Assembly: GCF_001262605.1 (NCBI RefSeq)
Contig: NZ_LGTC01000001.1
Span: 1,071,192-1,103,191 of the forward strand
DNA from: Pseudobacteroides cellulosolvens ATCC 35603 = DSM 2933
GTDB taxonomy: Bacteria; Bacillota; Clostridia; Acetivibrionales; DSM-2933
Direction of reading: 5' to 3'
Length of the DNA stretch: 32,000 nucleotides
Shown in pieces: positions 736 through 32,000 of this stretch. A program made the translations under genes and the position numbers. Each line of letters begins with the position of its first letter. Position 1 is the first letter of the stretch. The notes under the pieces are model-generated. The model ran no database searches. It had not been told where the DNA came from and saw only the letters and a program-made list of their open reading frames with translations.

Positions 736-761
736 ATATCCTCCATCTGATTACACGAAAT

Positions 762-778: not shown

Positions 779-858
779 TATTGTAAATCTTTTTACCCCA
801 TACCCCTATTATCTATTAATATTCAAAACAGACTATTTATTTAAAAATAATAACTTTT

Positions 859-1059: not shown

Positions 1060-1095
1060 ATATAAAATTTAATTTTATTTTACACTTCAAATATA

Positions 1096-1362: not shown

Positions 1363-1485
1363 TTTATATATCCTTTTTGCAATTTTTTAATTATTAAATT
1401 TCATATTTTAGTCGATTTTGGGTACGATCCGAACAGAATCTGCACAAAAACATGAAATTTAGACTATCGTTGACTGCATCACATA

Positions 1486-2667: not shown

Positions 2668-2700
2668 TTTTGTTTAACCTCCATTAAAATTTTTTATTTT

Positions 2701-2851
2701 GTCTATGTACGTAGACTCTCGTCGGGTGTTACATAGACCCGACGTGTTTTTCTCTTCAAACTATCTACTGCTTTTGTAGGGGTTTTTCTTAAAGTCTGTA
2801 GCGAATGGGTACCCCCTCCACACAGTGGAGCCTCCCCCATTCACTACAGAC
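2701..2851. other. hairpin-rich intergenic region between the Zot-like and Rep genes; candidate origin or packaging signal
   Basis: gtctatgta (2701-2709) pairs with tacatagac (2730-2738). cgtcggg (2720-2726) pairs with cccgacg (2738-2744), so the two helices interleave. A 58-nt hairpin spans 2794-2851, with 16-nt arms gtctgtagcgaatggg / cccattcactacagac (one mismatch) and an inner ctcca/tggag stem. The region is more GC-rich than its surroundings. Confidence 0.5.
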
Positions 2852-3545: not shown

Positions 3546-3558
3546 ATTTTAACACCCC

Positions 3559-3819
3559 TTATTTAATCATTCTTGCCCATCTCAAAATGAGCTGATAAGT
3601 ATAATAGACAGCCACTACAATTAACCATGCTTCTAATATGCTAATCATTTGGGCTATAGGTAACACCCAATTTAGTCCACCAAGAAATGAATTTACATCG
3701 GCATTATTTACAGTGTGAAATGGTGAATCAGGCAAAAGATTTATAATCCTTGCAACTAATTCAATTAACTTTTGTGTAATGCCTCCAAAAATATCACCAA
3801 ATATATCCATATTAATCAC
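3559..3819 (-). CDS. small membrane protein, pVI-like minor coat candidate (86 aa)
   Basis: Its size, hydrophobic segments and position between the pIII-like and Zot-like genes fit pVI. The annotated start at 3819 is GTG, and the ATG at 3810 is an alternative. It overlaps the upstream gene by 8 nt. Confidence 0.5.
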   Translation of the reverse strand: MINMDIFGDIFGGITQKLIELVARIINLLPDSPFHTVNNADVNSFLGGLNWVLPIAQMISILEAWLIVVAVYYTYQLILRWARMIK

Positions 3820-5122
3820 CTATAAACCTTCTTGAATTAATAATTAAAATAAAAGTGAAAATTAAAAGAGTTCCCCACCTTACAATTTTTGCCCATGCTT
3901 CAAACTGTGAAAAGTCTATAGTAAATTTACCTCCGCCCTTAAAAACAGAGTTTGAAAGGTCAATTTCCCATACGGGTGCTTTTGGTGTTGATTTTAATGC
4001 AACTACTGAATTATAAATGTCATATGGTATACAAAATGGAAACTTTCTTTTCATGAAATCACTTGGAATTGTTGGTGTATCTGTTCCCCATGTATTTGTT
4101 TCATTTGGGTCTGTCCATTCAAGCAAAACAAACTTTTTTGTAAATACAATTTTTCCAGTTGCATCCTTTATTTCAACTATGTTTTGTCCAATTTTATAAG
4201 GATTATTATATTTACCTTGCTCAACATTATAAAAATGATCATCGTAATAAGTTATTTGTTGATTTATAGGACAATCATTATATTTAACACCATTAACATA
4301 TATAGAATGCAATTGTTTGTTATATGTACCAGTACGTAAAACATACCATGTTGGAGCATATTGATATGTCTTTTCATTGTCAAATCCTATTATGTCTATT
4401 TTATTTGCATTAGTTTGCACTATTTCGAATTGTACTTCTGCTAATATTTCTCCAAATCCCGGTTCTCCTGGTGCAAGTCCTGTATTTTCTATGGTTATGC
4501 GATTTATACCTGGTACATATGGAATAATTTTTCCGGGAACATAAAAACCACTTAATGATTCGGTTAAATCCCATATATAAGTCATATTCATTTCCCAATT
4601 ACCATTTTTATCTTTTCCATATAAAATTACATCATAAGAAGAACCGTTGGTATCTGTAATTATTTGTATATTTGGATTTTCATCTATATATTTTTTTGAA
4701 CCTATAGGACTAATAAATTCAAATGTTGGTATATGTTCGTTACTTATTTTGTGTATTGTGCCATCATCATATACTACATCATAATTAGTATATACAAATG
4801 TTTGCCACGTGCCACCATGATAAAAATTTGCTGTTTGAAACCATTGTGAAATTTGCCCATTGTACAATTCAACTTCTATATAATTTCCTGAATTCTGTTT
4901 CCATAGTTGTTCAGTTTTATTATTCATTATTAACTTATCTTGCGAGTATATTGTTGTAGATACTAATTTACCATTATTTATATGTTCAATTACTGTTATA
5001 TAAGGATAGTCAATTGCATTATATTGCGTTAATGTTGTTGGTGATATTGTGTATGCAAAACAATTTATATAAAATCCTAAAGAAACAACTAATAAAATCA
5101 TAACATATAGTATTTTTTTCAT
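3812..5122 (-). CDS. pIII-like adsorption/minor coat protein candidate (436 aa)
   Basis: It has an N-terminal signal peptide (MKKILYVMILLVVSLGFYINCFA) and a C-terminal membrane anchor (WGTLLIFTFILIINSRRF). It lies immediately after the major coat gene, as gene III does. No sequence family is recognised. Confidence 0.55.
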   Translation of the reverse strand: MKKILYVMILLVVSLGFYINCFAYTISPTTLTQYNAIDYPYITVIEHINNGKLVSTTIYSQDKLIMNNKTEQLWKQNSGNYIEVELYNGQISQWFQTANFYHGGTWQTFVYTNYDVVYDDGTIHKISNEHIPTFEFISPIGSKKYIDENPNIQIITDTNGSSYDVILYGKDKNGNWEMNMTYIWDLTESLSGFYVPGKIIPYVPGINRITIENTGLAPGEPGFGEILAEVQFEIVQTNANKIDIIGFDNEKTYQYAPTWYVLRTGTYNKQLHSIYVNGVKYNDCPINQQITYYDDHFYNVEQGKYNNPYKIGQNIVEIKDATGKIVFTKKFVLLEWTDPNETNTWGTDTPTIPSDFMKRKFPFCIPYDIYNSVVALKSTPKAPVWEIDLSNSVFKGGGKFTIDFSQFEAWAKIVRWGTLLIFTFILIINSRRFIGD

Positions 5123-5139
5123 AACCTCACCGTCCCTTC

Positions 5140-5166
5140 AAAAAAAGGGACAGCCGAAGCCATCCC
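5140..5166 (-). terminator. intrinsic terminator after the major coat gene
   Basis: The minus strand reads GGGAUGGC-UUCG-GCUGUCCC (8-bp stem including two G-U pairs, UUCG tetraloop) followed by U7. It lies between the coat and pIII-like genes, as in Ff phages. The copy-2 equivalent is at 12100-12126. Confidence 0.6.
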
Positions 5167-5183
5167 CATTCCCTTTGGCAAAA

Positions 5184-5432
5184 TTATTTTGCCAGGCTTG
5201 CAAAAAACCTTTTGCCATACTTCCAAACCAAAAATGCACCAAATACAGCCAAACCATATGGAGCAACTTTGGCAAGACCTGCTAATACATCCGATTTGAT
5301 AGCAGTAAAATCAGTATCCATAGCAGTTGCTGTTCCTTCATCAAGTGCAGCAAATGACTGTATTGATACCATTGCAACTGCTAAACAAGTAAAAATAACT
5401 GATAAAAGTTTCTTTTTGTTTAATCTTTTCAT
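5184..5432 (-). CDS. major coat protein precursor (pVIII-like, 82 aa)
   Basis: It has a signal peptide ending SFA, an acidic mature N-terminus (ALDEGTATAMDTD), a hydrophobic core (GLAKVAPYGLAVFGAFLVW) and a basic C-terminus (KYGKRFFASLAK). This is the canonical inovirus coat layout. GGAGGG sits upstream. Confidence 0.8.
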   Translation of the reverse strand: MKRLNKKKLLSVIFTCLAVAMVSIQSFAALDEGTATAMDTDFTAIKSDVLAGLAKVAPYGLAVFGAFLVWKYGKRFFASLAK

Positions 5433-5461
5433 AAAAGACCCTCCTTAAATATGTAATTAGA

Positions 5462-5569
5462 TTATCTAAACAGTCTTAAACAGACCGTAAAGCCAAAACT
5501 TAAAAGAAATGCACTACCTGTAATTACTAAACCCCATTTCAAACCCATAAACACTAAACTAAAATCCAT
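5462..5569 (-). CDS. 35-aa hydrophobic protein, pVII/pIX-like minor coat candidate (not in ORF track)
   Basis: The minus strand reads AGGTGGTGctgatATG, then MDFSLVFMGLKWGLVITGSAFLLSFGFTVCLRLFR*. The RBS overlaps the stop of the upstream ORF. Size and position match gene VII/IX. Confidence 0.45.
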   Translation of the reverse strand: MDFSLVFMGLKWGLVITGSAFLLSFGFTVCLRLFR

Positions 5570-5580
5570 ATCAGCACCAC

Positions 5581-5736
5581 CTAAGAATTACGATTAAAGC
5601 ATGATACAAATACCAAAACAACAACTGTTGCAATAAAGAAACCAAAAAATATATTAATTAAAGATATTGCATCGTTTACTGCTTTTAATGTCTGATATTC
5701 GTAATATGTACCATAAACCGCTTCATAAACTGCCAT
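5581..5736 (-). CDS. 51-aa small membrane protein, minor coat candidate
   Basis: I trimmed the 76-aa track ORF to the internal ATG at 5736 (MAVYEAVYGTYYEYQ...). That ATG starts 4 nt after the stop of the upstream gene and has AGAGG upstream. The longer form would overlap the ssDNA-binding candidate by 71 nt. Confidence 0.4.
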   Translation of the reverse strand: MAVYEAVYGTYYEYQTLKAVNDAISLINIFFGFFIATVVVLVFVSCFNRNS

Positions 5737-5740
5737 GACA

Positions 5741-6052
5741 CTATACCTCTGAAAGTAATTCAAGTGAATCCAGTTTAACCTGGAGTTTACCTTTAACATT
5801 CTTAAATGCAAAGGTCATTGTGTAAAATGCTGGCACAACTGTAACTGAGCCGATTTTTTCAGTTGGAAGACTTTCTTTAACAACCTTTGTTCCTAAAGTG
5901 CCATCTTCATTTAATAAAGGTTTAAGAGAATCTACCGGAATATACTCAATTGTATTCCCTTCCCTTACTTCCCCTGTTCTTTCATCAACCATTGACCACT
6001 TGTTAGGATTGGCGAACGTTACAAGTCCGATTACTTTATTTTCCATGCTCAT
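5741..6052 (-). CDS. ssDNA-binding protein candidate (pV analogue, 103 aa)
   Basis: The call rests on size and position upstream of the coat module, and on a beta-rich composition. No motif is recognised. Confidence 0.4.
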   Translation of the reverse strand: MSMENKVIGLVTFANPNKWSMVDERTGEVREGNTIEYIPVDSLKPLLNEDGTLGTKVVKESLPTEKIGSVTVVPAFYTMTFAFKNVKGKLQVKLDSLELLSEV

Positions 6053-6168
6053 TCCTCCTCATCATCTTTATAATTACATTGTGTACAATGCCAAAATGCG
6101 TCTTCATAAATTCCCATTGCGTTACATCCGATGTCAACCATTTCTGCCCCACAGTTAGGACAATTCAT
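6049..6168 (-). CDS. 39-aa zinc-ribbon protein
   Basis: I trimmed the 61-aa track ORF to the ATG at 6168, which is preceded by GGAGGGGG. The protein MNCPNCGAEM...HCTQCNYKDDEEE has two CxxC pairs. Its stop overlaps the next start (ATGA). Confidence 0.5.
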   Translation of the reverse strand: MNCPNCGAEMVDIGCNAMGIYEDAFWHCTQCNYKDDEEE

Positions 6169-6212
6169 AACAACCCCCTCCACATCGAACAATCGTTCTA
6201 ATATTATTGTAC

Positions 6213-6271
6213 TACTTGTGTAACCTATTAGCAAAACAGTTATTCCTACTTCTGTAACCTATTAGTAAAAC
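6213..6271. repeat. two 25-bp direct repeats (23/25 identical, 34-bp period); candidate operator or iteron
   Basis: The repeats are tacttgtgtaacctattagcaaaac (6213-6237) and tacttctgtaacctattagtaaaac (6247-6271). They lie between the predicted minus-strand promoter and the first structural-operon gene. The copy-2 equivalents span 14988-15046. Confidence 0.6.
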
Positions 6272-6325
6272 GAAAATATTTTTAAAAATCATATAACTGA
6301 CAACATCAAACGTATTACACTTTTA

Positions 6326-6355
6326 ATTATATATCTGTATAACATTCAATGTCAA
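6326..6355 (-). promoter_or_regulatory. sigma-A-like promoter for the phage minus-strand operon
   Basis: The minus strand reads TTGACA (6350-6355), an 18-nt spacer, then TATAAT (6326-6331). The copy-2 equivalent is at 15101-15130. Confidence 0.5.
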
Positions 6356-6364
6356 TAGTATGAT

Positions 6365-6393
6365 ATATTATATCTTAGGCAATATGTTATAAT
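6365..6393 (+). promoter_or_regulatory. divergent promoter for the RHH regulator gene (extended -10)
   Basis: TGtTATAAT lies at 6385-6393 with a weak -35. It is back-to-back with the minus-strand promoter. The copy-2 equivalent is at 15140-15168. Confidence 0.35.
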
Positions 6394-6426
6394 ACTTTTA
6401 AAATATACTTAGAAAGGATGTTTTTA

Positions 6427-6603
6427 ATGGCAAAAGATATTTTCACACTAAGAATTACACCTGAAATTTTGAATAAAATTAAAGCTATAGCAGGAATAGA
6501 AAAAAGAACAACAGCAACACAAATAGAGTATGCATTAGAAATATATATAAAAGACTATGAAAAATTACATGGTAAAGTTGAAGTAAAAGATAATGATGAA
6601 TAA
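6427..6603 (+). CDS. ribbon-helix-helix (CopG/Arc/MetJ-like) transcriptional regulator, 58 aa
   Basis: FTLRITPEILNKIKAIAGIEKRTTATQIEYALEIYI fits a strand-helix-helix pattern. I moved the start to the ATG at 6427, about 10 nt after AAAGGA, because the track start at 6418 is too close to the RBS. The gene is divergent from the structural operon. Confidence 0.55.
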   Translation: MAKDIFTLRITPEILNKIKAIAGIEKRTTATQIEYALEIYIKDYEKLHGKVEVKDNDE

Positions 6604-6613
6604 AAGGTGAATT

Positions 6614-6949
6614 ATGCAAAATAAAAGCTTAATTAAACATAAAAAAGAAATTTTATTATATTATAAATTATTGTCTATTTTATCTATAATATGTCTTGGT
6701 ATCATATTTCCTTTTATATTTAGCTTTTTGCATAAAGCAGATTTAATATCTCCATATATTATTAACATACCATTAAAATATTTTTATATATTTTATAGTG
6801 TTTTAGGAATGGTTGTAGGGTTTACAATTAGCTATATTAAAATATTAAAACTAAAGTTGTTTTTAGAAAGTTGTTTACGTATAGAAAAAATTGAAGAAGA
6901 TATATCAAAAATATTATATGAAAAGAATGATATTTATCAATCTTCCTAA
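6614..6949 (+). CDS. small membrane protein (111 aa, 2 TM plus helical tail); function unknown
   Basis: ORF-track ORF, 10 nt after the RHH gene and preceded by AAGGTG. It is hydrophobic and identical in both copies. Confidence 0.5.
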   Translation: MQNKSLIKHKKEILLYYKLLSILSIICLGIIFPFIFSFLHKADLISPYIINIPLKYFYIFYSVLGMVVGFTISYIKILKLKLFLESCLRIEKIEEDISKILYEKNDIYQSS

Positions 6950-15201: not shown

Positions 15202-15378
15202 ATGGCAAAAGATATTTTCACACTAAGAATTACACCTGAAATTTTGAATAAAATTAAAGCTATAGCAGGAATAGAAAAAAGAACAACAGCAACACAAATA
15301 GAGTATGCATTAGAAATATATATAAAAGACTATGAAAAATTACATGGTAAAGTTGAAGTAAAAGATAATGATGAATAA
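15202..15378 (+). CDS. RHH transcriptional regulator (copy 2)
   Basis: Same as 6427-6603. Confidence 0.55.
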   Translation: MAKDIFTLRITPEILNKIKAIAGIEKRTTATQIEYALEIYIKDYEKLHGKVEVKDNDE

Positions 15379-15388
15379 AAGGTGAATT

Positions 15389-15724
15389 ATGCAAAATAAA
15401 AGCTTAATTAAACATAAAAAAGAAATTTTATTATATTATAAATTATTGTCTATTTTATCTATAATATGTCTTGGTATCATATTTCCTTTTATATTTAGCT
15501 TTTTGCATAAAGCAGATTTAATATCTCCATATATTATTAACATACCATTAAAATATTTTTATATATTTTATAGTGTTTTAGGAATGGTTGTAGGGTTTAC
15601 AATTAGCTATATTAAAATATTAAAACTAAAGTTGTTTTTAGAAAGTTGTTTACGTATAGAAAAAATTGAAGAAGATATATCAAAAATATTATATGAAAAG
15701 AATGATATTTATCAATCTTCCTAA
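15389..15724 (+). CDS. small membrane protein (copy 2)
   Basis: Same as 6614-6949. Confidence 0.5.
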   Translation: MQNKSLIKHKKEILLYYKLLSILSIICLGIIFPFIFSFLHKADLISPYIINIPLKYFYIFYSVLGMVVGFTISYIKILKLKLFLESCLRIEKIEEDISKILYEKNDIYQSS

Positions 15725-16240
15725 TAAATAGCCCTAAAATGGGCTTTATTTTATGTCGAAAATGCGTAAGGGTGAAGAATGAAGAATTCACTGGATTATC
15801 GAAATTTGGGTAGTTTTCCCGCAAAAATTCGCCTTAAATCGTAATATCTTACCGCCCTTTACGTGCCTGTCAAAATTTATTCTGGGAACCCCGAAGTAAT
15901 TAGTTCCTAATTGTCTATACCTGCCCGCGTTCGAACTCTCACCCCAAGAAAGTACAGAGATATTTTATAATGCAGTGTCGGGGTTCAACAAGCTTTAAGA
16001 GTGCATTAGGTCACTCGTTGAAGTAATGCTAATTTGTTTGAACTCACCCCCGCCCCTTGAAGGGGAGGCAATTACCTTTCATTCTTGGCTTTTGATTTTA
16101 CCTCCCCTTTTTGTCAAGGGATGACGGCATAAGTAGTAATAATAACGGGTCGCTCAACTTATACGTCATTAACCCTTGACATGGTCATCCTATTGGGTCG
16201 GCGGTCTTCGAAGCCAACAAGAATGAAAGGATGATGAATT
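15725..16240. other. structured ORF-free intergenic region (copy 2)
   Basis: It equals 6950-7467 apart from two single-C deletions in C-runs. Confidence 0.55.
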
Positions 16241-16453
16241 ATGAATATCGAATTTAATGGAAAATCAATTGCAAATTACAAACTTGAAGTTAGCCAAATA
16301 GAACTTTGGGAAATCAAGAACGCAATCAAAAGAAAATTGAAAAAAGAAAGAGAATTTATTGATGAGATGTACACTGAAAATCAAGATGAAGAATTTGAGA
16401 AATCAAACAGAACATTAATACTTATGCTTGAATCTATCGAAAAAATAATATAA
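16241..16453 (+). CDS. hypothetical 70-aa protein (copy 2)
   Basis: Same as 7468-7680. Confidence 0.5.
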   Translation: MNIEFNGKSIANYKLEVSQIELWEIKNAIKRKLKKEREFIDEMYTENQDEEFEKSNRTLILMLESIEKII

Positions 16454-21190: not shown

Positions 21191-24100
21191 TTAATATTTC
21201 CCAAATTCATTATTACTTAAAGAAATCTTCTTTATACCTGAAGCTCCACCTATTGCAGATGGCTTTTTATTTGTAGACATATTCTCAATCATTTTCAACA
21301 CTTCAGGATTAAGATCATTACTGCTATCAGTTTTCTTAAGATTAAATTTATTTACCATTTCCTTGAGGACTTCTGCCTGACTGGAAAGCTCTTCACTTGC
21401 AGCTGCACTTTCTTCTGACGTAGCAGAGTTTGTTTGAGTAACTTGTGATACCTGCATTATACCTTGATTAACCTGTGCAATACCTGAGGCCTGCTCATTA
21501 GAAGCAGAAGCAATATCTCCTACCAGGTTTGCAGCTTTTGCTACACCGTCAACTATTTTATTGAGGGCTTCTGCTGTATCATTAGCAATCCTGGTTCCAC
21601 CCTCAACCTTCTTAATAGAACCTTCAATAAGCACCGTTGTTTCTTTAGCAGCATTAGCAGACCTTGCAGCGAGATTTCTTACTTCCTCTGCTACCACTGC
21701 AAAACCCTTGCCGTGCTGTCCTGCTCTTGCAGCTTCTACAGCAGCATTAAGTGCGAGTATGTTTGTTTGGAATGCGATTTCATCAATGACTTTTATAATC
21801 TTTGAAATGTTTGCTGAAGATTCATTAATATCACCCATTGCCTTTAACATTCCAGCCATTTGTTCATTTCCTTTGACTGCATCCTGTTTAGCCGATAGAG
21901 CCAATTCATTCGCCTGATTTGCATTAACGGCATTCTGCTTGGTTTGAGAAGCAATTTCATCCATTGAAGCTGTTAATTCTTCAATTGAACTGGCTTGTTC
22001 CGTAGATCCCTGTGATAAAGCCTGTGCAGAATCAGATATCTGTCTGGAGCCTGAAGCCACCTGTATAGCAGCAATGTTTATATCATTTAAAACATCATTA
22101 AAGGATTTTAATGTGAAATTAAGATCATTTTTTATTTTAGCATATTCGCCTTTATAATCGCCGGTCATGCTAACTGTAAGATTACCTTTAGCCATTTCCT
22201 GCATGACAGATGTAGCCTCTTGTATTGGTTCGGCAAAAGCTTCCATTGTCTTATTCATACCCTCAATGATTTCTTTATACCCACCTTTAAATTTACTCTC
22301 ATTCCCTCTTACATCCAATTCACCATCTATTGCAGCTTTGGCAAGAATACCTGCCTCGCTTACCAAATCACGTATTGATCTCATGGCTTCGATACAGGCA
22401 GGCATAATCTTATCATTTTCGGATCTTTTTCCTATCTTTTCAAAATCTTCCAACTTGCTTGAATCACCTTTACCAACGCGTTCAAAAGCATCCTGTATAC
22501 TTATTAATCTGGTATGGACTTGATTTATAGCTTCTGCAAACTCTTTAAATGTACCTTTATATTGGCCGGTCATTTGTGTAGTAAAATCATTGACAGAAAT
22601 CTTTTCAAGTACTTTCTTTGCTTCTGTTAAAGGTATTTCTATTGCATCAATGGTATCGTTTACACCTTTAACGATTGTTGCATATCCACCCTTTAGCTTA
22701 TTAACATCGCTTCGAACAGAAATTTTACCCTCCGTGGCAGCTTTTGCAAGCATAGTCGTCTCATCAATAAGTGTATAAAGTGAGGCCCTTACTTTATTAA
22801 GGTTATCAATTAATACCCTGAAATCACCCTTATACTTATTTTCTATTATTTCCAACTCTTCACCTTTTGACATTTTTTCTATGTACCCTGCTGCAAAATT
22901 TAGTGGTTCCATGACAGCATCAAGCGTATTATTAATGCCCTCGACGATTTTTCTATACTCCCCATTGTGCTGCGAAGCATTTGCTCTTGATTCAAGATTG
23001 CCGTTAATTGCAGAAGATACAAGAGTTTCTGCATCACTGATCATTAGGTTAAGTGCTGATTTAACTTTAGTGAGACTATTATTGATCTTTACAAAGTTTT
23101 CTCTGGCTTCTTTGGTAAATTGGTCTGCTTCTTTTACACTAAGATCCATATCCAGTCTTCCTTCAGCCAGCATATCTAAATTTGCAGCAAGACGTTCAAC
23201 TTCTTCTTTTGTGTAGGAATTTACTTTAAGAATTGATGTTAGGTCGGTAACAACCTCAACAAACCCAATACTTTCACCCTTCCTATTTCTAAGATATGAA
23301 GTGTCCTGTTTGCAGCTCATTCCGCACCAGTCAAAATAGCTTTCGGCTTTACCCTTTAAAAGTTGCTTTATACCACAGTTTTGCGTATTACAAATATTGG
23401 CTCCAGCATTACTGCATTGTCTGCCATATCCATCCTTTCGTTCCCTCACTACGCCCTGTTCAATCATCAATTTCTCAAAGGATTTATTCATATAAGTCCA
23501 GTTCATATCATTATCAGTTACATGTATTGGGAAAGGCACTGCATCAATAATCGCCTCATACCATGCATTCCTATCGTTTACCGTATCCAATGTCTGGTTT
23601 ACACCTTCTACTATCTTCCTGTATTGCCCATCATGTTTTTGAGCATCCGCTCTTACTGAAAACTTACCTGCAATTGCTGAATCGGAAAGCATGGATACAT
23701 CTCCAATCAGCTTTCCTATTGCTTCCTTTGTTTTCTCCAAGGAGTTGTTTATTTTTATAAAGTCCTCTCTTGCTTCTTCTGTAAATTGGTTGCTTTCAGC
23801 TACTTGCATATTCAGATTGAGATCGCCTTTTGAAAGTAAATCAAGGTTAGATGCCAAACGATCTACTTCTTTTTTTGTGTATTCATTAACACTTAATATG
23901 GAAGACAAGTCAGTTACTACTTCAACATATCCTACTACCTCTCCTTTTGCATTTCTTAAATGTGAAGTATCTTGTTTGCAATTCATACCGCACCAATCAA
24001 AATAGCTTTCCGGAACCCCTTTTTGAAGTTGCTTGATACCACATTTCTGAGTATTGCAAATATTAGCCCCAGCATGGCTGCAAGCTTTTCCATATCCAGA

Positions 24101-24379
24101 CCTGCGGTTTTTAATTACACCCTGTTCAATCATTAATTTTTCAAAGGCTTTATTCATGTAAGTCCAGTTCATATCTCCATCAGTAACATGAATAGGAAAA
24201 GGAACAGCGTCGATAATTTCTTCATACCAGGCCATTCTTTCTGCAATTTTTTTTAGCAGCGATATTATTCCTTCCGAATCTTTTGAATCTGATTCAATAG
24301 TAATGTTTGTCTCACCAGCAGCTATTTTTTCAGCCATTACCACAATCTTATTAAATGCTTTATCGCTAAACCATTTCAT
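21191..24379 (-). CDS. soluble methyl-accepting chemotaxis protein with duplicated Cys-rich PAS-like sensor modules and a poly-HAMP-like region (1062 aa)
   Basis: The C-terminal MCP signalling domain reads ...[41 protein letters not shown].... There is no N-terminal TM helix. A 222-aa module (aa 50-271 and 272-493) is duplicated. Confidence 0.9.
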
Positions 24380-24568: not shown

Positions 24569-24841
24569 TTAACCGCATAACCTGCAGGTGCCAAAAGAAA
24601 CACATGCCTTTAACTGCTCGCATATATATTTATACTCGCTTATACTGATACCATACTTGTCAAGTATCTGCTGTGTAGGCATAGCGGGTTTAAATGCCAT
24701 GTTGCCGCACATATTAGGTCTGCGTTTATCAGGTGAGATATCATACTTATCGCCAAAATCCTTATAATTTGCCTTAATACCGTTAATTTTAAACATTTTA
24801 GTCTCGCATATTGTGCTGTATACGTCTAATTCCAATTTCAT
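24569..24841 (-). CDS. hypothetical 90-aa protein with a C-terminal CxxC
   Basis: ORF-track ORF with GGAGTGG upstream and its own terminator. The protein ends ...CVSFGTCRLCG. I recognise no family. Confidence 0.5.
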   Translation of the reverse strand: MKLELDVYSTICETKMFKINGIKANYKDFGDKYDISPDKRRPNMCGNMAFKPAMPTQQILDKYGISISEYKYICEQLKACVSFGTCRLCG

Positions 24842-25027
24842 TTAAAACCACTCCTTCTATAGACATTTTCATTATTCATAAGGTTAAAATTTTGTTAATT
24901 GTTTGACAATTTAATTTTACTGCAATCAAAACTACCCAACAATTATAATTTTTCAGCCTGTCAAATGGTCTTTTCAGCTACCTGATTGTTAGATACGGTA
25001 TAGAGATTCGTGGTTTTAATCTCCATT

Positions 25028-25072
25028 AAAAAACGCAAAATACCCCCATGAAGATTAATCCTCATGAGGGTA
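25028..25072 (-). terminator. intrinsic terminator downstream of the TnpB-like gene
   Basis: The minus strand has taccctcatga-ggattaatc-tcatgggggta (11-bp stem with one G-U pair) followed by ttttgcgtttttt. Confidence 0.7.
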
Positions 25073-25204
25073 TTGCTAGATAGCTGCTCTTTCACATCAA
25101 AACGTTCTTGTATTGATGTCTTACTCGGTAAGATTTCCATTTAATTATGGAAGTGGTGCGGCAGCAAAAGCACATATTGGTCAGTAATATTAATTTATTA
25201 TATA
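25073..25204 (-). ncRNA. candidate structured RNA (omega/guide-RNA-like) between the TnpB-like stop and the terminator
   Basis: A closing helix pairs 25083-25087 with 25161-25165 (gctgc/gcagc). It encloses three 6-bp hairpins: 25135-25152 (ttccat/atggaa), 25119-25133 (tcttac/gtaaga) and 25095-25118 (catcaa/ttgatg). There is no ORF. The position matches where TnpB-family guide-RNA scaffolds lie. The ends are not defined. Confidence 0.3.
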
Positions 25205-26689
25205 TTAAATATACTCTATCAAATCCATGAAATTTTCAACGCTTTCTAATTTCCTTATAAGGCTTATTCTGGCAGAATGAGCTTTTTTATCTTGAGTCTT
25301 AACTATAAGTTTCGTATCTTCAATTATCTTTTGGATTTCATTCTTAAGCCGCAATAGTTGGTCCTCTTTGTAACTTGTAAAACAATCCAGACCAAGGATT
25401 TTATTGGAAAATACTACTCCACTGTCAACTCTCTTTATATTGATTTTAATTTTTGAAGTATTGTAATCAATAAGCTTTCTTGCTAGATTAAGGCTTCCCA
25501 GCTTGTCTATATCCATTGTGGTTCCACAGCTTGAGCATATTAGCAAATCCTTGTTGAACCTGTTCTTTTTGGAATTCCGCCCACAACTGCAGCATGTATA
25601 ATAAATACCTATAGGGCTTACCTTAATAGGCTTGGGAAGTCCTTTCCATTGAAGCTTGTACTCTAGAAGGCTTACCATTCGGTTATAGTCCTTCCTCTTA
25701 AATCGAGGCAGGTATTGATCCAGATCATTATCACTCCACCCCAACCCATCTCCTCTTTGTGAAAGGTTTTGAACTATTATCTGTGCTTTATGAGAAATGG
25801 CTATATCGGTAATTATATTAGCTGCTTTATGCAGCTTATTTAAAGGTATTCCTGATGAATCATCATTTTTTTCCAGAGTATCAATCTCACCGGATATTAT
25901 TATTTCCCCGTGAGAATTCACAACAGTATAATGAAGGTTGCTTTTTAGCCCTCTGCTAACACCCATATACGCCATAGTGCTTATGCTCTTTGACTCACCC
26001 GCTTCTATTGATATGGCCAGATAATATTCATTATCCCTTACTAAAAGTCTCGCAGTCTTGAAACACTCGGGTGCTTTAGACGCCTCCTTTATAATCCTCT
26101 CCTGCCATTTACCGAAAGAAAGCGGTACAATAATATGAGTTTCCTTCCTTCTCTTTCTTTCCAGCATCTTATTGTCTTTATGAACATGAACCAGGCCTTC
26201 CCTTATATTAGCCTCCGCCGCTGTCCTTGCATTAGGACCGTTAAGCAGATAAAGTTTAACATAATACCTGTCCTTTTCCTTGTCATAAAGCAGGCAGTAA
26301 CCTCTTTTGGTATCGTACCTGCAAAAATAAATAGGACGGAAATAACTGAAGGCTGCTTCTTTATTCACATTTTCCTGGCATACGCTTCCAGTTCTCAAAC
26401 AGTCGGCCATGGCATATGCAAATTCAAGTCTCAAAGAATCTTTAAACGGCTGTACATCGAATTTGTTCAGCTCCTGACTTAAGTTGCTGTCAATCCATTT
26501 TGAAAGTGCCAGTATATTATATTGACCGGCCTTCACTTTAAACCTTTGTTCAAGTTCAGGTAAGCAGTTGCCTGCTTTGTTTATGAGAAATTCAAAGGCC
26601 TTGTTATAGCCAAGTAAAGCATCATTAATAATTTGCTGCTTTGCTTTACTTGGCTTATGAAGTTTTAAAACAATTGTCCTCATCCCCAT
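25205..26689 (-). CDS. TnpB/Cas12f-like RNA-guided-nuclease homologue with substituted RuvC catalytic residues (494 aa)
   Basis: The N-terminus RTIVLKLHKPSKAKQQIINDAL...YNKAF resembles the typical TnpB opening. IIVPLSFGKWQ resembles the wedge-strand motif. The RuvC-I position reads MGVSRGL (S245 where GxDxG is expected). The RuvC-II position reads IIVQNLS (Q307 where E is expected). The zinc finger C366-x2-C369...C385-x2-C388 is intact. RuvC-III reads MDIDKLGSLNLAR, so the Asp is retained. Confidence 0.7.
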   Translation of the reverse strand: MGMRTIVLKLHKPSKAKQQIINDALLGYNKAFEFLINKAGNCLPELEQRFKVKAGQYNILALSKWIDSNLSQELNKFDVQPFKDSLRLEFAYAMADCLRTGSVCQENVNKEAAFSYFRPIYFCRYDTKRGYCLLYDKEKDRYYVKLYLLNGPNARTAAEANIREGLVHVHKDNKMLERKRRKETHIIVPLSFGKWQERIIKEASKAPECFKTARLLVRDNEYYLAISIEAGESKSISTMAYMGVSRGLKSNLHYTVVNSHGEIIISGEIDTLEKNDDSSGIPLNKLHKAANIITDIAISHKAQIIVQNLSQRGDGLGWSDNDLDQYLPRFKRKDYNRMVSLLEYKLQWKGLPKPIKVSPIGIYYTCCSCGRNSKKNRFNKDLLICSSCGTTMDIDKLGSLNLARKLIDYNTSKIKINIKRVDSGVVFSNKILGLDCFTSYKEDQLLRLKNEIQKIIEDTKLIVKTQDKKAHSARISLIRKLESVENFMDLIEYI

Positions 26690-26721: not shown

Positions 26722-29334
26722 TTATTTTCCGCCGTTATAAGCGGTTAGGTATATCTTTTCCAACTCAGACACCAATGGGAGTCTTGGGTTAGCAGTTGTA
26801 CACTGATCTTCAAATGCCTTATCTGCAAGCTCAGCAACCTTGGCATTGAACTTTTTGCTGTCAACCTTGCATTCTGCTATTGTGGAAGGCATATTAAGCT
26901 CTTTCATAAGATCCTTGATGGCTTTTATCAAGCTTTTTACCCCTTCCTCATTGGTTGATGCAGGAAGTCCCAGTGCTTTTGCTATTTCAGCATATTTTTT
27001 GTCTGCAATGAATGTTTCATATTTAGGGAAAGACACAAACTTAGTAGGCTTTTGTGCATTGTACTCTATAACATAAGGTAGAAGTACTGCATTTGCCCTT
27101 CCGTGAGGTATATGGAATTCTCCACCCAGTTTGTGAGCAAGGCTGTGGTTTATTCCCAGGAATGCATTTGTAAATGCCATACCTGCTATACATGAAGCGT
27201 TATGCATTTTTTCTCTTGCCAACGCATCATTGCCATTCTTGTAGGCCCTTGGCAAGTATTCGAACACCAACTGAATAGCCTTTATTGCCAAGCCGTCAGT
27301 AAAATCGGATGCCAGGATGGATACATAGGCTTCAATAGCGTGGGTAAGAACATCCATACCTGTGTCGGCAGTTACTGAAGGCGGTACAGACATTACGTAA
27401 TCAGCATCTATTATTGCAACATCAGGAGTCAATTCATAATCCGCCAGAGGATATTTCACATTTCTTTCTTTATCGGTAATAACCGCAAAGGATGTAACCT
27501 CTGAACCTGTACCCGAAGTGGTGGGAATTGCTACCATCTTTGACTTTTTGCCCAGTTTAGGGAACTTGTAAACTCTCTTTCTTATGTCCATAAACTTAAG
27601 CCTTAATGAATTAAAGTCAGTTTCAGGATGCTCATAGAAAAGCCACATTCCTTTAGCCGCATCCATGGCCGATCCGCCGCCTAAAGCTATTATAACATCT
27701 GGCTGAAACTTGTTCATAAGCTCGCAGCCCTTCATAACAGTCTCAACAGATGGGTCCGGTTCAACATCTGAGAATATCTCACAGTGAACATACTGCTGTC
27801 TTTTTCTAAGGTAGTAAAGAATTTTATCTACATATCCAAGCTTAACCATATATGGGTCGGTTACTATAAATGCTTTTGATATATTAGGCATCTTCTCTAG
27901 GTACTGAGTTGAGCCAAATTCAAAGTATATTTTTTCAGGTATCTTAAACCATTGCATATTCACTCTTCTCCTTGACACTCTTTTTTTGTTGATAAGATTT
28001 GCTGCAGAAACATTCTGAGTTGTTGAATTTTTTCCGTATGTTCCGCATCCTAATGTAAGAGATGGAGTGTTTGTATTGTAAATATCACCGATAGCACCAT
28101 GTGTTGAAGGTGAATTGACTATTAACCTTCCCGATTTTAGCCTCTTTGAAAACTCCTCGATTATTTTCTCGTCGTTGGAGTGTATGACGGATGAGTGTCC
28201 CAAACCTCCGAATTCAACCATCTGTTCAGCTTTCCTTATTCCTTCCTCAGAAGAATCCACAATATAGTATGCAAGGATTGGGCTGAGCTTTTCCCTTGAA
28301 AGAGGGTACTCCGGACCTACATCTTCCTGCTTTGCTATTAGAATTTTTGTATTTTCAGGCACATTTAAACCTGCCATATTTGCTATGGTATAAGCAGATT
28401 GTCCTACAACATTTGGATTCATGGCACACTTTACTTCATCTATGGCCAGCTTTGCCAACTTTTTAGTTTCATCTTCATTTAAGAAATAGCATGAATTGTC
28501 CTTCATAAATTTTTCAAACTCCGCAGAAACCTCACGATCTACGATAACAGCCTGTTCAGATGCACAGATCATCCCGTTGTCGAAGGTCTTTGACAATATA
28601 AGGTCTGTTGCAGCTCTCTTTATATTGGCAGTTTTTTCAATATAACACGGTACATTACCCGGTCCAACACCAAGGGCAGGTTTGCCTGTGCTGTATGCTG
28701 CCTGAACCATTCCTGCTCCTCCGGTTGCAAGTATCAGAGATACACCGCTGTGGTTCATAAGAAGTTGAGTCGCTTCAATTGAGGGTTTTTCTACCCAAAG
28801 TATGCAGTCTTCAGGAGCACCTGCTTCTATAGCAGCGTCCCTCAATACCCTTGCAGCTTCAGCACTGCATTTTTGTGCAGATGGATGGAATGCAAATATA
28901 ATGGGGTTCCTTGCCTTAATTGCTATTATTGCTTTAAACATGGTTGTGGATGTAGGATTTGTGACAGGTGTTACAGCAGCTATTACGCCTACCGGTTCCG
29001 CTACTTCAAAGAAATCTTCATTTTCATTATCGTTTATTATTCCAACAGTTTTCTCGTACTTGATGCTATGGTAAATGTACTCTGTAGAAAATAAATTTTT
29101 TGTGATTTTGTCTTCATAAACACCCCTGCCTGTTTCCTCAACAGCCATTTTAGCAAGTCGCATGTGGTCATCTATTCCGCTTAATGCCATAGCTTTAACG
29201 ATGGCATCGATCTTTTCCTGATCGTATGTCATGAATTTTTCCAATGCTTTTTGTGCCCTTGAAACAAGTTCACCTATTTCCTTATTAACATTAACCTGCT
29301 CATTAACTTGATTGTTTTTAATTTTTTCTGTCAT
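26722..29334 (-). CDS. adhE: bifunctional acetaldehyde-CoA/alcohol dehydrogenase
   Basis: About 870 aa, with an N-terminal aldehyde dehydrogenase domain and a C-terminal iron-type alcohol dehydrogenase domain (GGGSAMDAAK, HxxxH region). I placed the start at the ATG at 29334, 8 nt after AGAGGAG. The track's GTG at 29343 abuts the RBS. Confidence 0.95.
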   Translation of the reverse strand: MTEKIKNNQVNEQVNVNKEIGELVSRAQKALEKFMTYDQEKIDAIVKAMALSGIDDHMRLAKMAVEETGRGVYEDKITKNLFSTEYIYHSIKYEKTVGIINDNENEDFFEVAEPVGVIAAVTPVTNPTSTTMFKAIIAIKARNPIIFAFHPSAQKCSAEAARVLRDAAIEAGAPEDCILWVEKPSIEATQLLMNHSGVSLILATGGAGMVQAAYSTGKPALGVGPGNVPCYIEKTANIKRAATDLILSKTFDNGMICASEQAVIVDREVSAEFEKFMKDNSCYFLNEDETKKLAKLAIDEVKCAMNPNVVGQSAYTIANMAGLNVPENTKILIAKQEDVGPEYPLSREKLSPILAYYIVDSSEEGIRKAEQMVEFGGLGHSSVIHSNDEKIIEEFSKRLKSGRLIVNSPSTHGAIGDIYNTNTPSLTLGCGTYGKNSTTQNVSAANLINKKRVSRRRVNMQWFKIPEKIYFEFGSTQYLEKMPNISKAFIVTDPYMVKLGYVDKILYYLRKRQQYVHCEIFSDVEPDPSVETVMKGCELMNKFQPDVIIALGGGSAMDAAKGMWLFYEHPETDFNSLRLKFMDIRKRVYKFPKLGKKSKMVAIPTTSGTGSEVTSFAVITDKERNVKYPLADYELTPDVAIIDADYVMSVPPSVTADTGMDVLTHAIEAYVSILASDFTDGLAIKAIQLVFEYLPRAYKNGNDALAREKMHNASCIAGMAFTNAFLGINHSLAHKLGGEFHIPHGRANAVLLPYVIEYNAQKPTKFVSFPKYETFIADKKYAEIAKALGLPASTNEEGVKSLIKAIKDLMKELNMPSTIAECKVDSKKFNAKVAELADKAFEDQCTTANPRLPLVSELEKIYLTAYNGGK

Positions 29335-29372: not shown

Positions 29373-29390
29373 TTGTTAATTATTTAACAC
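29373..29390. promoter_or_regulatory. putative Rex (redox-sensing repressor) operator upstream of adhE
   Basis: TTGTTAAttatTTAACAc matches 17 of 18 positions of the clostridial Rex consensus TTGTTAAnnnnTTAACAA. It lies 39-56 nt upstream of the adhE start. Confidence 0.55.
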
Positions 29391-29430
29391 TCTATTTTAA
29401 AAAATCACATGGTGATTTTGTACCTTTATG

Positions 29431-30603
29431 TTAATGGTACTCCAAGGTAACTTGTTTACCCAGTTTCCTCAAATATATCACTATCTCTTCTACAAGTTTC
29501 AGCTTAAGGCTTAAATTAAAAGGAAATTCAGGGTTCTGATGTGCCGGATTCATGGCACGCCCTACTATAAAATGAATATTTGTGCTCTCCTCCAGAAGAA
29601 TTTTTGCTAGTCTCGATGCTCCATCCTTTTTATTTAGGTTTAGAAAATCCTTCATGGTGCTTTCGGATGAATCACAGGCTTTTATATAATCAAGAGTCTT
29701 CCTTAATGTAAGTACACCTTCAGTAGCAAGATCAATTCCATCTATATCAGCTGTTGGTGGTACACTGGGATTGTAGTAGTCAAAGTTTGTCTTTATTTCT
29801 TTTTTTAGAACCCTTGCCACTATTTGCGAGGTAGTACCGCCGCAAACTACCTTTTTTCCTTCCAATGCAGTAAAATCATATATGATCTCTCTATCTTCCT
29901 GTGAATCTATTGGTGGCCCCACCATTACGTTGAGCCTAACGGGCTTTCGTATATTGACGGTTACCACAGTTGTATCGTCACCGGGCTCCTGGGCATACAG
30001 GTTGTCACACACCGAAAGCAGCAGCTTTGTAATTGCTTTTGCAGAAATATCGTTTTTATATGTCCTTTGAATGTACTCTGAAACATTGTTCCACTGCCAT
30101 CCAAGGTTCAAGGTTTGACCGATTCCGGCATGTATTACTCCATCACTTACTATAATAAACATGTCATCAGGAGTTACCGTAAACCTGGCTTCCTTGATTT
30201 TCTTACCGCTAATTAACCTTATTGTTGTTTCTATGTTAAAAGGTTTCCCTTTTCTTAGCCTGAACACAGATGGATTATCGAATTCAACCAGATACCCTTC
30301 ACCGGAGTTGAAAACCTGAAGTATTGAAAAGGTGGAATACGCAATTCCTCTTTCCCGGCAAACCGGCAGTGTATTTGCAATTGTTTCAACTGCTTCATCG
30401 ATACTTGAACCGTTTGCCATAATTGTTCCAATAATTTTGGCAGTAAGGGTAGCAAGGATATTTGCCTTAACCCCGCTCCCAAGCCCATCTGCAAGCACTA
30501 CTACAACGGAATTTTCATCTCTTATGATCTCAACCTTATCTCCGCACAGTTCCTCATTATGCTTGTTAAGGCTTTCAAAACTTGTATCTATATATAAGCT
30601 CAC
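29431..30603 (-). CDS. SpoIIE/PP2C-family serine phosphatase (HfsC-like), 390 aa
   Basis: CGDKVEII...VVVLADGLGSGVKANILATL and ...FIIVSDGVIHAG.. are PP2C/SpoIIE motifs. The gene overlaps the upstream gene by 4 nt. Confidence 0.8.
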   Translation of the reverse strand: MSLYIDTSFESLNKHNEELCGDKVEIIRDENSVVVVLADGLGSGVKANILATLTAKIIGTIMANGSSIDEAVETIANTLPVCRERGIAYSTFSILQVFNSGEGYLVEFDNPSVFRLRKGKPFNIETTIRLISGKKIKEARFTVTPDDMFIIVSDGVIHAGIGQTLNLGWQWNNVSEYIQRTYKNDISAKAITKLLLSVCDNLYAQEPGDDTTVVTVNIRKPVRLNVMVGPPIDSQEDREIIYDFTALEGKKVVCGGTTSQIVARVLKKEIKTNFDYYNPSVPPTADIDGIDLATEGVLTLRKTLDYIKACDSSESTMKDFLNLNKKDGASRLAKILLEESTNIHFIVGRAMNPAHQNPEFPFNLSLKLKLVEEIVIYLRKLGKQVTLEYH

Positions 30604-32000
30604 TTAACATCACCCATTTCCGACATGATCGACTTTTTGAGCTTGGTTAGTGCAACCTTCGTTTCAGCTGTTGTTTCTCCTAAGAGGCTGGCAATCTCTT
30701 GTGCAACTCTCATTTGCTTTTCTATTACCTTTTGTGCAAGCTCCACATTCTCTTCACGGATTTTATGCATCTTTTGTATTTGTCTTTCCTCATCCGTTAT
30801 ATCCTTTATAACTACAACTACTATGTTTTGGTCGGGTACGTAAATTATGGACTGAGTGACAGTCATGTCGTACTTTTCATAATAGTATTTTTCATCATAT
30901 ATATTTTTCTTACTGTCAATAACAAACTGGAAATCTCCGCATTCCAATACCTCAAAAATACTTTTACCTTCAAGGGATGATTTATTTAGTCCAAATATCT
31001 TCTGAGCCGAGTAATTGGCTTCCTGTATGCACAGCTTCTCATTAAGGGCAAAAATAGCATTTGGTGTAGTGTTAATAATTAGGTTGGACATGGACTCGGC
31101 TCTTTCTCTCATATATGGCAAACACATATGGAGTTGGGCTCTGTTGTTATAAACGGCAATTGCTTTGTCCCTGCAGCTTGAATAACCGCATGCCCCGCAA
31201 TTTAATTCCTTATCCGCTGTAAACTTCCCTATACTGTTCAATATACCTTGTATAGCCGACTCTGAGGGTACTGCACCTTTCTTTTGCATGTCAAAGAAAT
31301 TTCTTTTTAAATCAACCTTCGAATCTCTCGTACTTACAAGTTTTTCTTCTTTTAATCCACGTTTTAAATAGGTTAGCAACCTTCTTCTTGCCTCTAAAAA
31401 TCCACCCTTTATATGCTTCATGCATGGACCGCCAATGCATCCGCCTGAACAGCTGTTCATTTCAATAAAGTAATTTTCAAGGCCGTCATTTTTTATAGAA
31501 TCCAGTATCTTTATGCATCTTTCTACTCCATCCACACTGAGACACTGGTAATTTTTATTGTTTCTGCTTTCAAGCGTTTTAATAATTCCTCCGGGAACTG
31601 GATAAATTCTTGCTCTAAGCTCCCTTACTCCCTTTATTTCATCAGTTAAATCGATATCATCGGTAATACCTTCCTCTAAAAGCCATGCATCCAATTCTTC
31701 AAATGTTATTGCTGCATCTATTACTCCTCTGGTTTGAAGATCATTACACTCATCCTTTTTAGAAAGGCATGGTCCAATAAATACTACCTTTATCCTCGGC
31801 CCATACATTTCACGAAGCATCTTTCCATGGGCTATCATTGGAGATACAACTGGAGCCAACTGGTCTACCAGCTCAGGATAATATTTTTGAACAAGCAGTG
31901 TAATTGATGGACAGGCAGAAGTTATAATATTTTTCATCTTCTTTTCTTTGATCAATTGATCATACTTCTTGGAAACCTGTGCAGCACCTACCGCTGTTTC
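30600..32000 (-). CDS. sensory [FeFe]-hydrogenase-like protein with C-terminal Cys motif and PAS domain (HydS/HfsB-like); 5'-partial
   Basis: H-cluster-domain motifs TSACPS and FIGPCLSKKDE are present. The C-terminal part carries CGACGYSSC and a PAS-like region. The frame stays open from the track start (a TTG at 31955) to the window edge (...ETAVGAAQVSKKYDQLIKEKK...), so the gene starts beyond 32000. Confidence 0.75.
   Translation of the reverse strand, partial: ETAVGAAQVSKKYDQLIKEKKMKNIITSACPSITLLVQKYYPELVDQLAPVVSPMIAHGKMLREMYGPRIKVVFIGPCLSKKDECNDLQTRGVIDAAITFEELDAWLLEEGITDDIDLTDEIKGVRELRARIYPVPGGIIKTLESRNNKNYQCLSVDGVERCIKILDSIKNDGLENYFIEMNSCSGGCIGGPCMKHIKGGFLEARRRLLTYLKRGLKEEKLVSTRDSKVDLKRNFFDMQKKGAVPSESAIQGILNSIGKFTADKELNCGACGYSSCRDKAIAVYNNRAQLHMCLPYMRERAESMSNLIINTTPNAIFALNEKLCIQEANYSAQKIFGLNKSSLEGKSIFEVLECGDFQFVIDSKKNIYDEKYYYEKYDMTVTQSIIYVPDQNIVVVVIKDITDEERQIQKMHKIREENVELAQKVIEKQMRVAQEIASLLGETTAETKVALTKLKKSIMSEMGDVK

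Follow-up and report, generated by a model that had tools for sequence, protein, structure and literature searches.

The window analysed here, a stretch of 32,000 nucleotides (nt) from Pseudobacteroides cellulosolvens (contig NZ_LGTC01000001.1, positions 1,071,192 to 1,103,191), carries on its reverse strand a gene for a TnpB/Cas12f-like protein of 494 amino acids (aa). This gene, which is immobile, found once per genome and widely conserved, closes an operon that encodes a sensory [FeFe] hydrogenase and a phosphatase, and it is followed directly by a conserved structured RNA. We are inclined, by a modest degree, to interpret the protein as the RNA-bound, non-cleaving output of a module that senses H2 and redox state and controls electron-sink genes. 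An earlier note on this DNA, made from the sequence alone, had taken the protein for an undescribed orphan regulator linked to adhE; the family had, however, already been described computationally in 2023 (PMC10691335).

A TnpB/Cas12f-like protein with a disrupted RuvC triad

The open reading frame (ORF) at 25205-26689 on the reverse strand, its length and the codons of residues 245 and 307 lie exactly where the earlier note had placed them. Its product is matched in the database at 100% identity by a P. cellulosolvens "zinc ribbon domain-containing protein". Pfam recognises the Cas12f1-like_TNB zinc ribbon (PF07282) in residues 335-402 with 33.6 bits against a gathering score of 26.3, and the NCBIfam model guided_TnpB (NF040570) matches residues 286-405 only, at 40.6 bits, which does not reach its cut-off of 100. 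A phmmer search against the PDB likewise matched TnpB/Cas12f chains across residues 332-412 only. Judged from its sequence, the protein is a divergent member of the TnpB/Cas12f superfamily.

An AlphaFold2 model computed from an alignment of 97 family members (predicted local distance difference test score, pLDDT, 89.2; predicted template modelling score, pTM, 0.71) has full-length Cas12f ternary complexes as its top Foldseek matches in the PDB. AsCas12f (7wju_A) is matched with E=1.2e-15 and TM-scores of 0.51/0.61 over 462 columns, followed by the TnpB proteins of ISDra2 and ISFba1, Cas12e, Cas12k and dCas12f. The protein is thus predicted to keep the full-length WED-REC-RuvC fold of the Cas12f/TnpB type. 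The extra C-terminal extension claimed in the earlier note is present (residues ~412-494) and folded, mostly with pLDDT >=84. It is not purely helical as had been supposed, and in the model consists of a beta-sheet plus helices. The same domain is shared with some active relatives (P0206, P0211). The wedge motif and the zinc finger, both noted before, are conserved features of the family: PLSFGKWQ recurs across homologues with P189, L190, F192 and G193 invariant, and the four cysteines of the CxxC...CxxC finger do not vary among the 97 homologues.

In place of the canonical D-E-D triad of RuvC the protein has S245, Q307 and D395. The codon AGC at 25957-25955 encodes S245 within MGVSRGL, CAA at 25771-25769 encodes Q307 within IIVQNLS, and the same codon arithmetic puts D395 at 25507-25505. 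Two lines of comparison agree with the earlier reading of these residues as a lost RuvC-I Asp, a lost RuvC-II Glu and a retained RuvC-III Asp. Full-length distant relatives that are still of the active type, and retain D/E/D, align LGVDRGI, VVMEDL and HADxNAA over S245, Q307 and D395. A profile of the 97 members compared with the PDB pairs GVSRGL with GI(D->A)RGE of dead Cas12e, IVQNL (within one residue) with MEDL of OsCas12f, and MDIDKLGS with MNADRNAS of a TnpB.

The substitutions extend through the family. Among the 97 homologues position 245 is Ser in 57, Ala in 19, Cys in 13, Thr in four, Gly in three and Val in one, and acidic in none; position 307 is Gln in 81 and Glu in 11, the other five homologues each having a residue of their own; position 395 is Asp in 57, Glu in 39 and His in one. 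The S/Q pair is not universal, but the canonical RuvC active site is dead across the family. R246 and D314 are invariant in the same alignment. D314 lies in the loop or insert after the RuvC-II strand and probably corresponds to the lid-insert Asp described for SpoIIE-TnpB in PMC10691335.

This pattern of conservation can be read in another way, namely that R246, D314 and the acidic residue 395 form an alternative, rearranged catalytic centre with nuclease or some other activity. Rearranged catalysis is raised explicitly as an option for the clade in PMC10691335, where functional RuvC rearrangements are reported from other TnpB branches, and the invariance of two of these residues, together with an acidic residue at position 395 in 96 of 97 homologues, speaks in its favour. 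Position 245 is, however, never acidic, position 307 is predominantly Gln, and Arg is not a metal ligand; moreover, a gene kept in one copy within a stable operon, beside a sensor and a phosphatase, is more in keeping with a regulatory than with a cleaving function. We consider a rearranged active enzyme improbable.

Conservation and immobility of the gene

The family comprises 268 proteins at E<=1e-3 in a 90%-identity database, or 86 clusters at 50% identity and E<=1e-30. The gene is single-copy per genome. No P. cellulosolvens paralogue is named among the matches listed (120 of the 268), of which the next is 79% identical. In several groups of Clostridia, members that share as little as ~30% identity are still conserved over their full length and keep the same operon context, with Ruminiclostridium, Christensenella and Caproiciproducens among these groups. 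A tnpA neighbour was not found in the window, the immediate neighbours being adhE and a 90-aa ORF, and the 32-kb window contains neither a CRISPR-like array nor array-like tandem repeats.

Some database entries bear names like "putative transposase" or "transposase IS605 OrfB", which would suggest an ordinary mobile TnpB of an IS200/IS605 insertion sequence (IS), or its decaying relic. Against such an origin of the present copy stand the absence of a paralogue from the matches listed and of tnpA and IS ends, in agreement with what the earlier note had seen, as well as the full-length conservation within a fixed operon and the conservation of the companion RNA. Synteny and single-copy data refute the mobile alternative, and we attach a negligible probability to it.

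A conserved structured RNA downstream of the stop codon

Comparison of the DNA past the stop codons revealed an RNA element that is conserved even between distant loci, and which an anchored extraction recovered in 76 of 80 sequences. From 5' to 3' it consists of a hairpin GUGC...GCAC with UUGCUGCC in its loop, one or two variable hairpins, a CUUAC-CGA-GUAAG hairpin, a further variable hairpin and an invariant 3' block, AAAGNGCAGCUAUCU (listed among the features as AGCUAUCU). The loop of the 5' hairpin (GCUGC) pairs with GCAGC near the 3' end to form a pseudoknot, and this pairing covaries: GCUGC/GCAGC is replaced by GCUAC/GUAGC in 12 sequences and by GCUGU/ACAGC in three. In the CUUAC-CGA-GUAAG hairpin 17-30 double compensatory changes were counted per pair. 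In an alignment of 73 sequences 89% of the cells are paired, compared to 20-52% when the partners are slid by 1-3 columns, with P1 paired to 99.5% and P3 to 100%. The covariation score of 0.374 was reached by none of 500 shuffles (0.219 +/- 0.010).

A covariance model of the element matches the window at 25076-25177 on the reverse strand with 72.6 bits (E=1.6e-18), and the fold of this segment is far more stable than that of shuffled sequences (z = -4.8). In 78 of 81 sources the model has exactly one strong match, on the strand of the gene and just 3' of it; of the remaining three, L080 and L078 break off inside the gene or shortly past it, so that little or nothing of the region is contained in them, and L075 has the region without a match. 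No Rfam family matches the RNA at gathering scores. In size and architecture the element resembles the omega-RNAs of TnpB and the guide RNAs of TldR. PMC10691335 had mentioned a long non-coding region near the gene and a possible omega-RNA-like RNA; the definition of the SpoIIE-TnpB RNA at the nucleotide level, with its covariation and pseudoknot, is new here.

A disrupted triad in a single-copy, immobile and widely conserved gene makes an exapted, non-cleaving, RNA-associated regulator credible, and the RNA scaffold strengthens this view. To this extent the proposal of the earlier note stands. Its description of the gene as an orphan attached to adhE does not, as the gene neighbourhoods show.

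A sensor hydrogenase and a phosphatase as operon partners

Gene context was surveyed in 80 loci encoding relatives of the protein, one per species and all from Clostridia, with their flanks compared to the proteins of the window. Far from being an orphan, the gene is the last of a conserved operon of a 2Fe-2S ferredoxin, HydS, a SpoIIE/PP2C phosphatase and the TnpB-like protein, which is found in 75-77 of the 80 genomes. The TnpB-like gene starts ~0-45 nt past the phosphatase gene or overlaps with it. Clustering of all ORFs in the loci yields a near-invariant gene order, running from a NuoF-like HydB through the catalytic HydA, a 2Fe-2S thioredoxin-like ferredoxin, HydS and SpoIIE to the TnpB-like gene, and the genes downstream of the latter vary between loci. 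No sigma-factor family was found among the neighbour clusters common to the 80 loci. The extended P. cellulosolvens locus (L081) reads HydB, HydA, ferredoxin, a 94-aa ORF, ferredoxin, HydS, SpoIIE, AdhE, TnpB-like and the 90-aa ORF; here the hydrogenase ORF, of which 451 aa lie inside the window, is complete with 573 aa. These partners and the downstream RNA had been overlooked in the earlier note. The features of the locus are compiled in Table 1.

Table 1. Features of the TnpB-like locus, in coordinates of the window.
Feature	Position	Strand	Basis
TnpB/Cas12f-like coding sequence (SpoIIE-TnpB type), 494 aa, predicted nuclease-dead	25205..26689	-	ORF; Pfam; AlphaFold2; Foldseek
S245-R246 codons at the RuvC-I position (GVSRGL vs GVDRGI)	25952..25957	-	alignments; columns of 97 homologues
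Q307 at the RuvC-II position (25769-25771) to invariant D314 (25748-25750)	25748..25771	-	alignments; column counts
CxxC...CxxC zinc ribbon (C366, C369, C385, C388) and RuvC-III D395 (25505-25507)	25505..25594	-	alignments; column counts
Additional C-terminal domain, residues ~410-494, predicted to form three strands and then helices	25208..25462	-	AlphaFold2 secondary structure
Structured non-coding RNA scaffold, omega-RNA-like, ~100 nt	25076..25177	-	covariation; covariance model; downstream of stop codon
Intrinsic terminator hairpin (16 bp; 25074-25039) and T-run, ~1-5 nt past the RNA scaffold	25025..25074	-	terminator scan; linker survey
adhE, bifunctional aldehyde/alcohol dehydrogenase, between phosphatase gene and TnpB-like gene	26722..29334	-	Pfam; neighbour survey
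SpoIIE/PP2C phosphatase, 390 aa, conserved partner	29431..30603	-	Pfam SpoIIE; immediately upstream in 77/80 loci
Sensory [FeFe] hydrogenase, HydS/HfsB-like (Fe_hyd_lg_C + FeS + PAS), cut by window end	30600..32000	-	Pfam; 75/80 loci
90-aa Cys-rich ORF, preceded by a Rex-like box (24892-24909)	24569..24841	-	neighbour survey
Rex-operator-like palindrome GTGTTAAATAATTAACAA, ~40 nt upstream of the adhE ATG	29373..29390		motif scan

The adhE gene, which had been regarded as the defining context, lies directly upstream of the TnpB-like gene in the window and in only ~13 of the 80 loci surveyed. A 389-aa iron-containing alcohol dehydrogenase (Fe-ADH) is found upstream of the hydrogenase genes in four further loci, so that adhE or Fe-ADH adjoins the module in ~17 of 80 loci from several subclades. 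A neighbour-joining tree built from the TnpB-like proteins likewise spreads the loci that carry adhE over several subclades. Their small number and their scatter over the tree indicate that adhE is a recurrent lineage-specific addition rather than a defining partner. A role as universal partner is ruled out by the low frequency, and a single derived insertion by the scatter of the adhE-linked members.

In the window itself adhE may nevertheless contribute to expression of the gene. The spacer between the adhE stop codon and the TnpB-like gene measures 32 nt, as previously noted, and our scan agrees in finding no terminator-like site in it, which makes read-through from adhE plausible. This close spacing, the presence of adhE in some of the loci and a link between hfsB and adhE in the literature are the arguments for the proposal of the earlier note, an orphan RNA-guided repressor dedicated to adhE. 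They are outweighed by the ~66 of 80 family loci that have no adhE nearby and yet keep HydS and SpoIIE, by the scatter of the adhE-linked members in the tree, by the Rex-like operator that adhE has of its own and by the lack of a guide match in the adhE upstream region. We regard a dedicated adhE repressor as distinctly improbable.

Several peculiarities of the neighbouring genes are recorded here in their own right. The start codon of adhE is probably ATG 29334, with a ribosome-binding site AGAGGAG at 29348-29342, and not the listed GTG 29343; the public gene call has 870 aa. Directly past the SpoIIE stop codon, at 29401-29418 on the reverse strand, lies an AT-rich hairpin AAAATCAC-CAT-GTGATTTT followed by Ts, which may weakly terminate or attenuate transcription between the sensor operon and adhE. 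Pfam SpoIIE covers only residues 30-218 of the phosphatase, the remainder being an uncharacterised C-terminal domain of ~170 aa. The phosphatases of the Caproiciproducens/Ethanoligenens group (L061, L062, L069-L071, L076, L077 and L079) are 221-247 aa long and devoid of this domain, although these loci retain both the TnpB-like gene and the RNA. The 90-aa ORF ends in CRLCG and has no Pfam match. It adjoins the TnpB-like gene in 11 loci, usually downstream, and in L010 and L014 it separates adhE from the TnpB-like gene. In the Christensenella group (L056-L066) a hybrid histidine kinase of ~880 aa, an Hpt protein of ~115 aa and an HD-type response regulator are conserved downstream of the gene and RNA, and possibly represent a second signalling link in that clade.

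The terminator and the guide question

In TnpB, Cas12f and TldR the guide is placed 3' of the scaffold. RNA-guided DNA binding would accordingly call for a guide past the invariant 3' block of the SpoIIE-TnpB RNA, and a terminator hairpin sits where a guide of the TnpB type would lie. Candidate guides were sought in the 30-40 nt past the scaffold, at offsets of -5 to +20, by exact 9-10-mers and local alignments.

Several observations weigh against the interpretation of the protein as a regulator with nucleic-acid targets. The scaffold passes from AGCUAUCU to the stable terminator hairpin over a linker with a median of 5 nt across loci, and no free guide is visible. From one close relative to the next the arms of the hairpin change in a compensatory manner, as is usual for ordinary terminators. 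Matches of the candidate guides were as frequent as the control counts obtained with the guides of other loci, in the 76 loci of ~13 kb as well as in the 32-kb window and the 15-kb extended P. cellulosolvens locus. Binding of a DNA heteroduplex could have been changed or lost in the clade. The possibility of a rearranged catalytic centre, set out above, bears on the non-cleaving part of the interpretation. Furthermore, PMC10691335 was the only relevant publication found on SpoIIE with TnpB, and no experimental study of the clade was found. Finally, the hfs operon of Thermoanaerobacterium saccharolyticum, as published, consists of four genes without a TnpB-like one, which means that the link between hfsB and adhE does not need such a protein.

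In the loci searched no common flanking motif comparable to a target-adjacent motif (TAM) was found beside the post-scaffold matches. Nor did any of them yield a guide-target pair for the RNA-guided repression of adh, ald or hydrogenase promoters that the earlier note had envisaged. An 11-nt match in hydA (codons DRAYEALQ) in L041 and L044, with 9 nt in L039, was judged to be due to chance: roughly estimated, some two matches of this kind are to be expected when all loci and offsets are taken together, and the three species are close relatives of one another.

These results lead to the alternative that the protein is bound to RNA but not guided to DNA. In that case the scaffold would be a structural cofactor or a regulatory ligand, and the protein would act through contacts with SpoIIE and HydS or on RNA, for example on the 3' end of the operon. 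The short linker, which holds no guide segment, and the lack of an in-locus target in the loci searched agree with this, as do the reported deletion of the bridge helix, the lid over the active site and the predicted interface with SpoIIE (PMC10691335). On the other side, the WED/REC/RuvC fold appears to be of full length, with Cas12f ternary complexes as its best structural matches, and targets could lie elsewhere in the genomes, beyond the loci searched. A characterised TldR, in addition, has a guide of only 9 nt which, until DNA is bound, adopts a stem-loop. Given that such a guide is itself a stem-loop, a hairpin at the guide position is compatible with guiding. We hold an exclusively RNA-bound mode of action to be rather unlikely, and RNA-guided DNA binding may operate in the clade.

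Rex-like operators around the cluster

Using the Rex motif TTGTTANNNNNNTAACAA from PMC5886521 with <=1 mismatch, we observed three Rex-operator-like palindromes in the window where 0.52 are expected. The first precedes adhE (Table 1), the second, at 24892-24909, lies upstream of the 90-aa ORF, and the third is located inside a chemoreceptor gene and probably due to chance. In the extended P. cellulosolvens locus, at about 4070-4090, a perfect Rex box stands behind a perfect sigma-70-type promoter, TTGACA-17-TATAAT, ahead of the ferredoxin-hydS-spoIIE operon. We interpret these putative operators as an indication that the whole cluster is part of an NADH-sensing Rex regulon. The module of HydS, the PP2C phosphatase and the TnpB-like protein may add an H2-dependent layer to the control by Rex.

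A possible output of hydrogen sensing

The interpretation that we favour can be phrased as a sequence of steps. A descendant of a TnpB/Cas12f-type nuclease has become immobilised and lost its canonical RuvC site, and its product would bind the ~100-nt pseudoknotted RNA encoded right past its own stop codon. The PAS-containing HydS/HfsB-like hydrogenase would sense H2. The PP2C phosphatase would then bind or dephosphorylate the TnpB-like ribonucleoprotein (RNP) and alter its occupancy of nucleic-acid targets, most likely the promoters of electron-sink genes such as those for hydrogenases and alcohol dehydrogenases, and the balance between the production of H2 and of ethanol would be set in this way. 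In the lineage of P. cellulosolvens, adhE with its own Rex-type operator has been inserted ahead of the TnpB-like gene, and the latter is probably read through from it.

A more far-reaching proposition is that the SpoIIE-TnpB RNP constitutes the long-sought nucleic-acid-binding output of H2 sensing by [FeFe] hydrogenases in fermentative Clostridia, switched on and off by HydS and PP2C so as to control the genes of hydrogenases and alcohol dehydrogenases, with its guide in the terminator hairpin or with no guide at all. We put this forward tentatively and consider it doubtful rather than likely; if true, either the guide would have a novel architecture or the RNP would act without one.

Many Clostridia, both cellulolytic ones and ones from the gut, have a putatively dead RNA-guided nuclease fixed at the close of their HydS-phosphatase operon. 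It is a concrete candidate for the missing output of HydS/HfsB, and mutations in hfsB are used to raise the ethanol yield of biofuel strains. That adhE or Fe-ADH has repeatedly come to lie beside the module suggests that the process under control is redox and ethanol metabolism. Should the interpretation hold, the TldR repressors and the dCas12f-sigmaE activators would be joined by a third natural kind of TnpB-derived regulator, this one gated by a phosphatase. The defined RNA provides experimenters with the exact molecule, and its apparent lack of a free guide with a specific puzzle.

Other features of the window

Downstream of the cluster, at 21191-24379 on the reverse strand, lies a gene for a 1062-aa methyl-accepting chemotaxis protein with duplicated N-terminal modules of PAS plus Cys-rich segments and four HAMP_2 repeats, which is not conserved among related loci. 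Positions 742-16346 are occupied by two tandem copies of a filamentous-phage-like (inovirus-type) prophage of ~6.96 kb, 97-100% identical, that encode a Zot-family protein (2844-3545 and 9750-10505) and a replication protein G2P/CRI (1486-2667 and 8447-9628). The second copy is interrupted by a transposase gene of the IS110 family at 12814-14094, and the copy spacing grows from 6960 to ~8774.

Comparison with known systems

The partners of the TnpB-like protein recall the hfs operon and HydS signalling, with hfsABCD of Thermoanaerobacterium and HydS of Ruminococcus albus and Thermotoga as examples. Common to both are a small Fe-S protein, a PAS-containing hydrogenase of the group C type, a SpoIIE/PP2C phosphatase upstream, a genetic link between hfsB and adhE and a putative Rex site on the operon. 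HfsB is a homologue of HydS, and deletion of hfsB in T. saccharolyticum raises the adhE transcript and the ethanol yield, for which hfsC and hfsD are needed (PMC5707799). The hfs operon differs in that it ends with the catalytic hydrogenase hfsD, and a TnpB-like gene is not described there.

The dCas12f-sigmaE systems of Bacteroidetes (PMC13472631) and Sigma-TnpB are likewise composed of a dead Cas12f-type protein that has lost its CRISPR association and a dedicated partner for transcription control. Their proteins are truncated at the C-terminus where the present one is extended, and their partner is a sigma factor instead of a PP2C phosphatase.

The TldR proteins, known from fliC-, csrA- and oppF-associated clades (Wiegand et al. 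2023/2024; a structural preprint of 2026), are also derived from TnpB, deteriorated in RuvC, immobile and linked to host genes, and their scaffold of 97 nt with stems and a pseudoknot has its counterpart in the ~100-nt stem and pseudoknot scaffold encoded directly downstream of the present gene. In contrast to TldR, however, the lineage here is Cas12f-like, with zinc finger and C-terminus retained or expanded that are truncated there, and it is partnered with a sensor hydrogenase and a phosphatase and not with the regulated gene; a guide-target pair or a TAM was not found in the loci searched here. Neither the TldR nor the dCas12f papers mention hydrogenases, clostridial phosphatases or adhE.

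The closest resemblance is to SpoIIE-TnpB, which Altae-Tran et al. (PNAS 2023; PMC10691335) introduced as a small clade of non-mobile, inactivated TnpBs from diverse Clostridia, which neighbours the active Cas12s of branch V-U38. They reported a lid insertion covering the active site, loss of the bridge helix, a distinct C-terminal domain, a conserved Arg in RuvC-I together with a conserved Asp in the insert, and an interface with SpoIIE predicted by AlphaFold. The SpoIIE and HydS neighbours, the C-terminal domain and the adjacent RNA are all seen here, and the invariant R246 and D314 are the probable counterparts of the conserved Arg and Asp. Full-length relatives with intact GVDRGI, VVMEDL and HADxNAA also exist, as candidates for the active sister branch. 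The protein differs in nothing essential, the adhE insertion being specific to this locus and its relatives. Since every testable feature of SpoIIE-TnpB is present, we regard the 494-aa protein as a new member of this computationally predicted family. To the description in PMC10691335 the present analysis adds the RNA at nucleotide level, the terminator without an obvious guide, the PAS-type sensory hydrogenase beside HydAB, and the Rex-like flanks.

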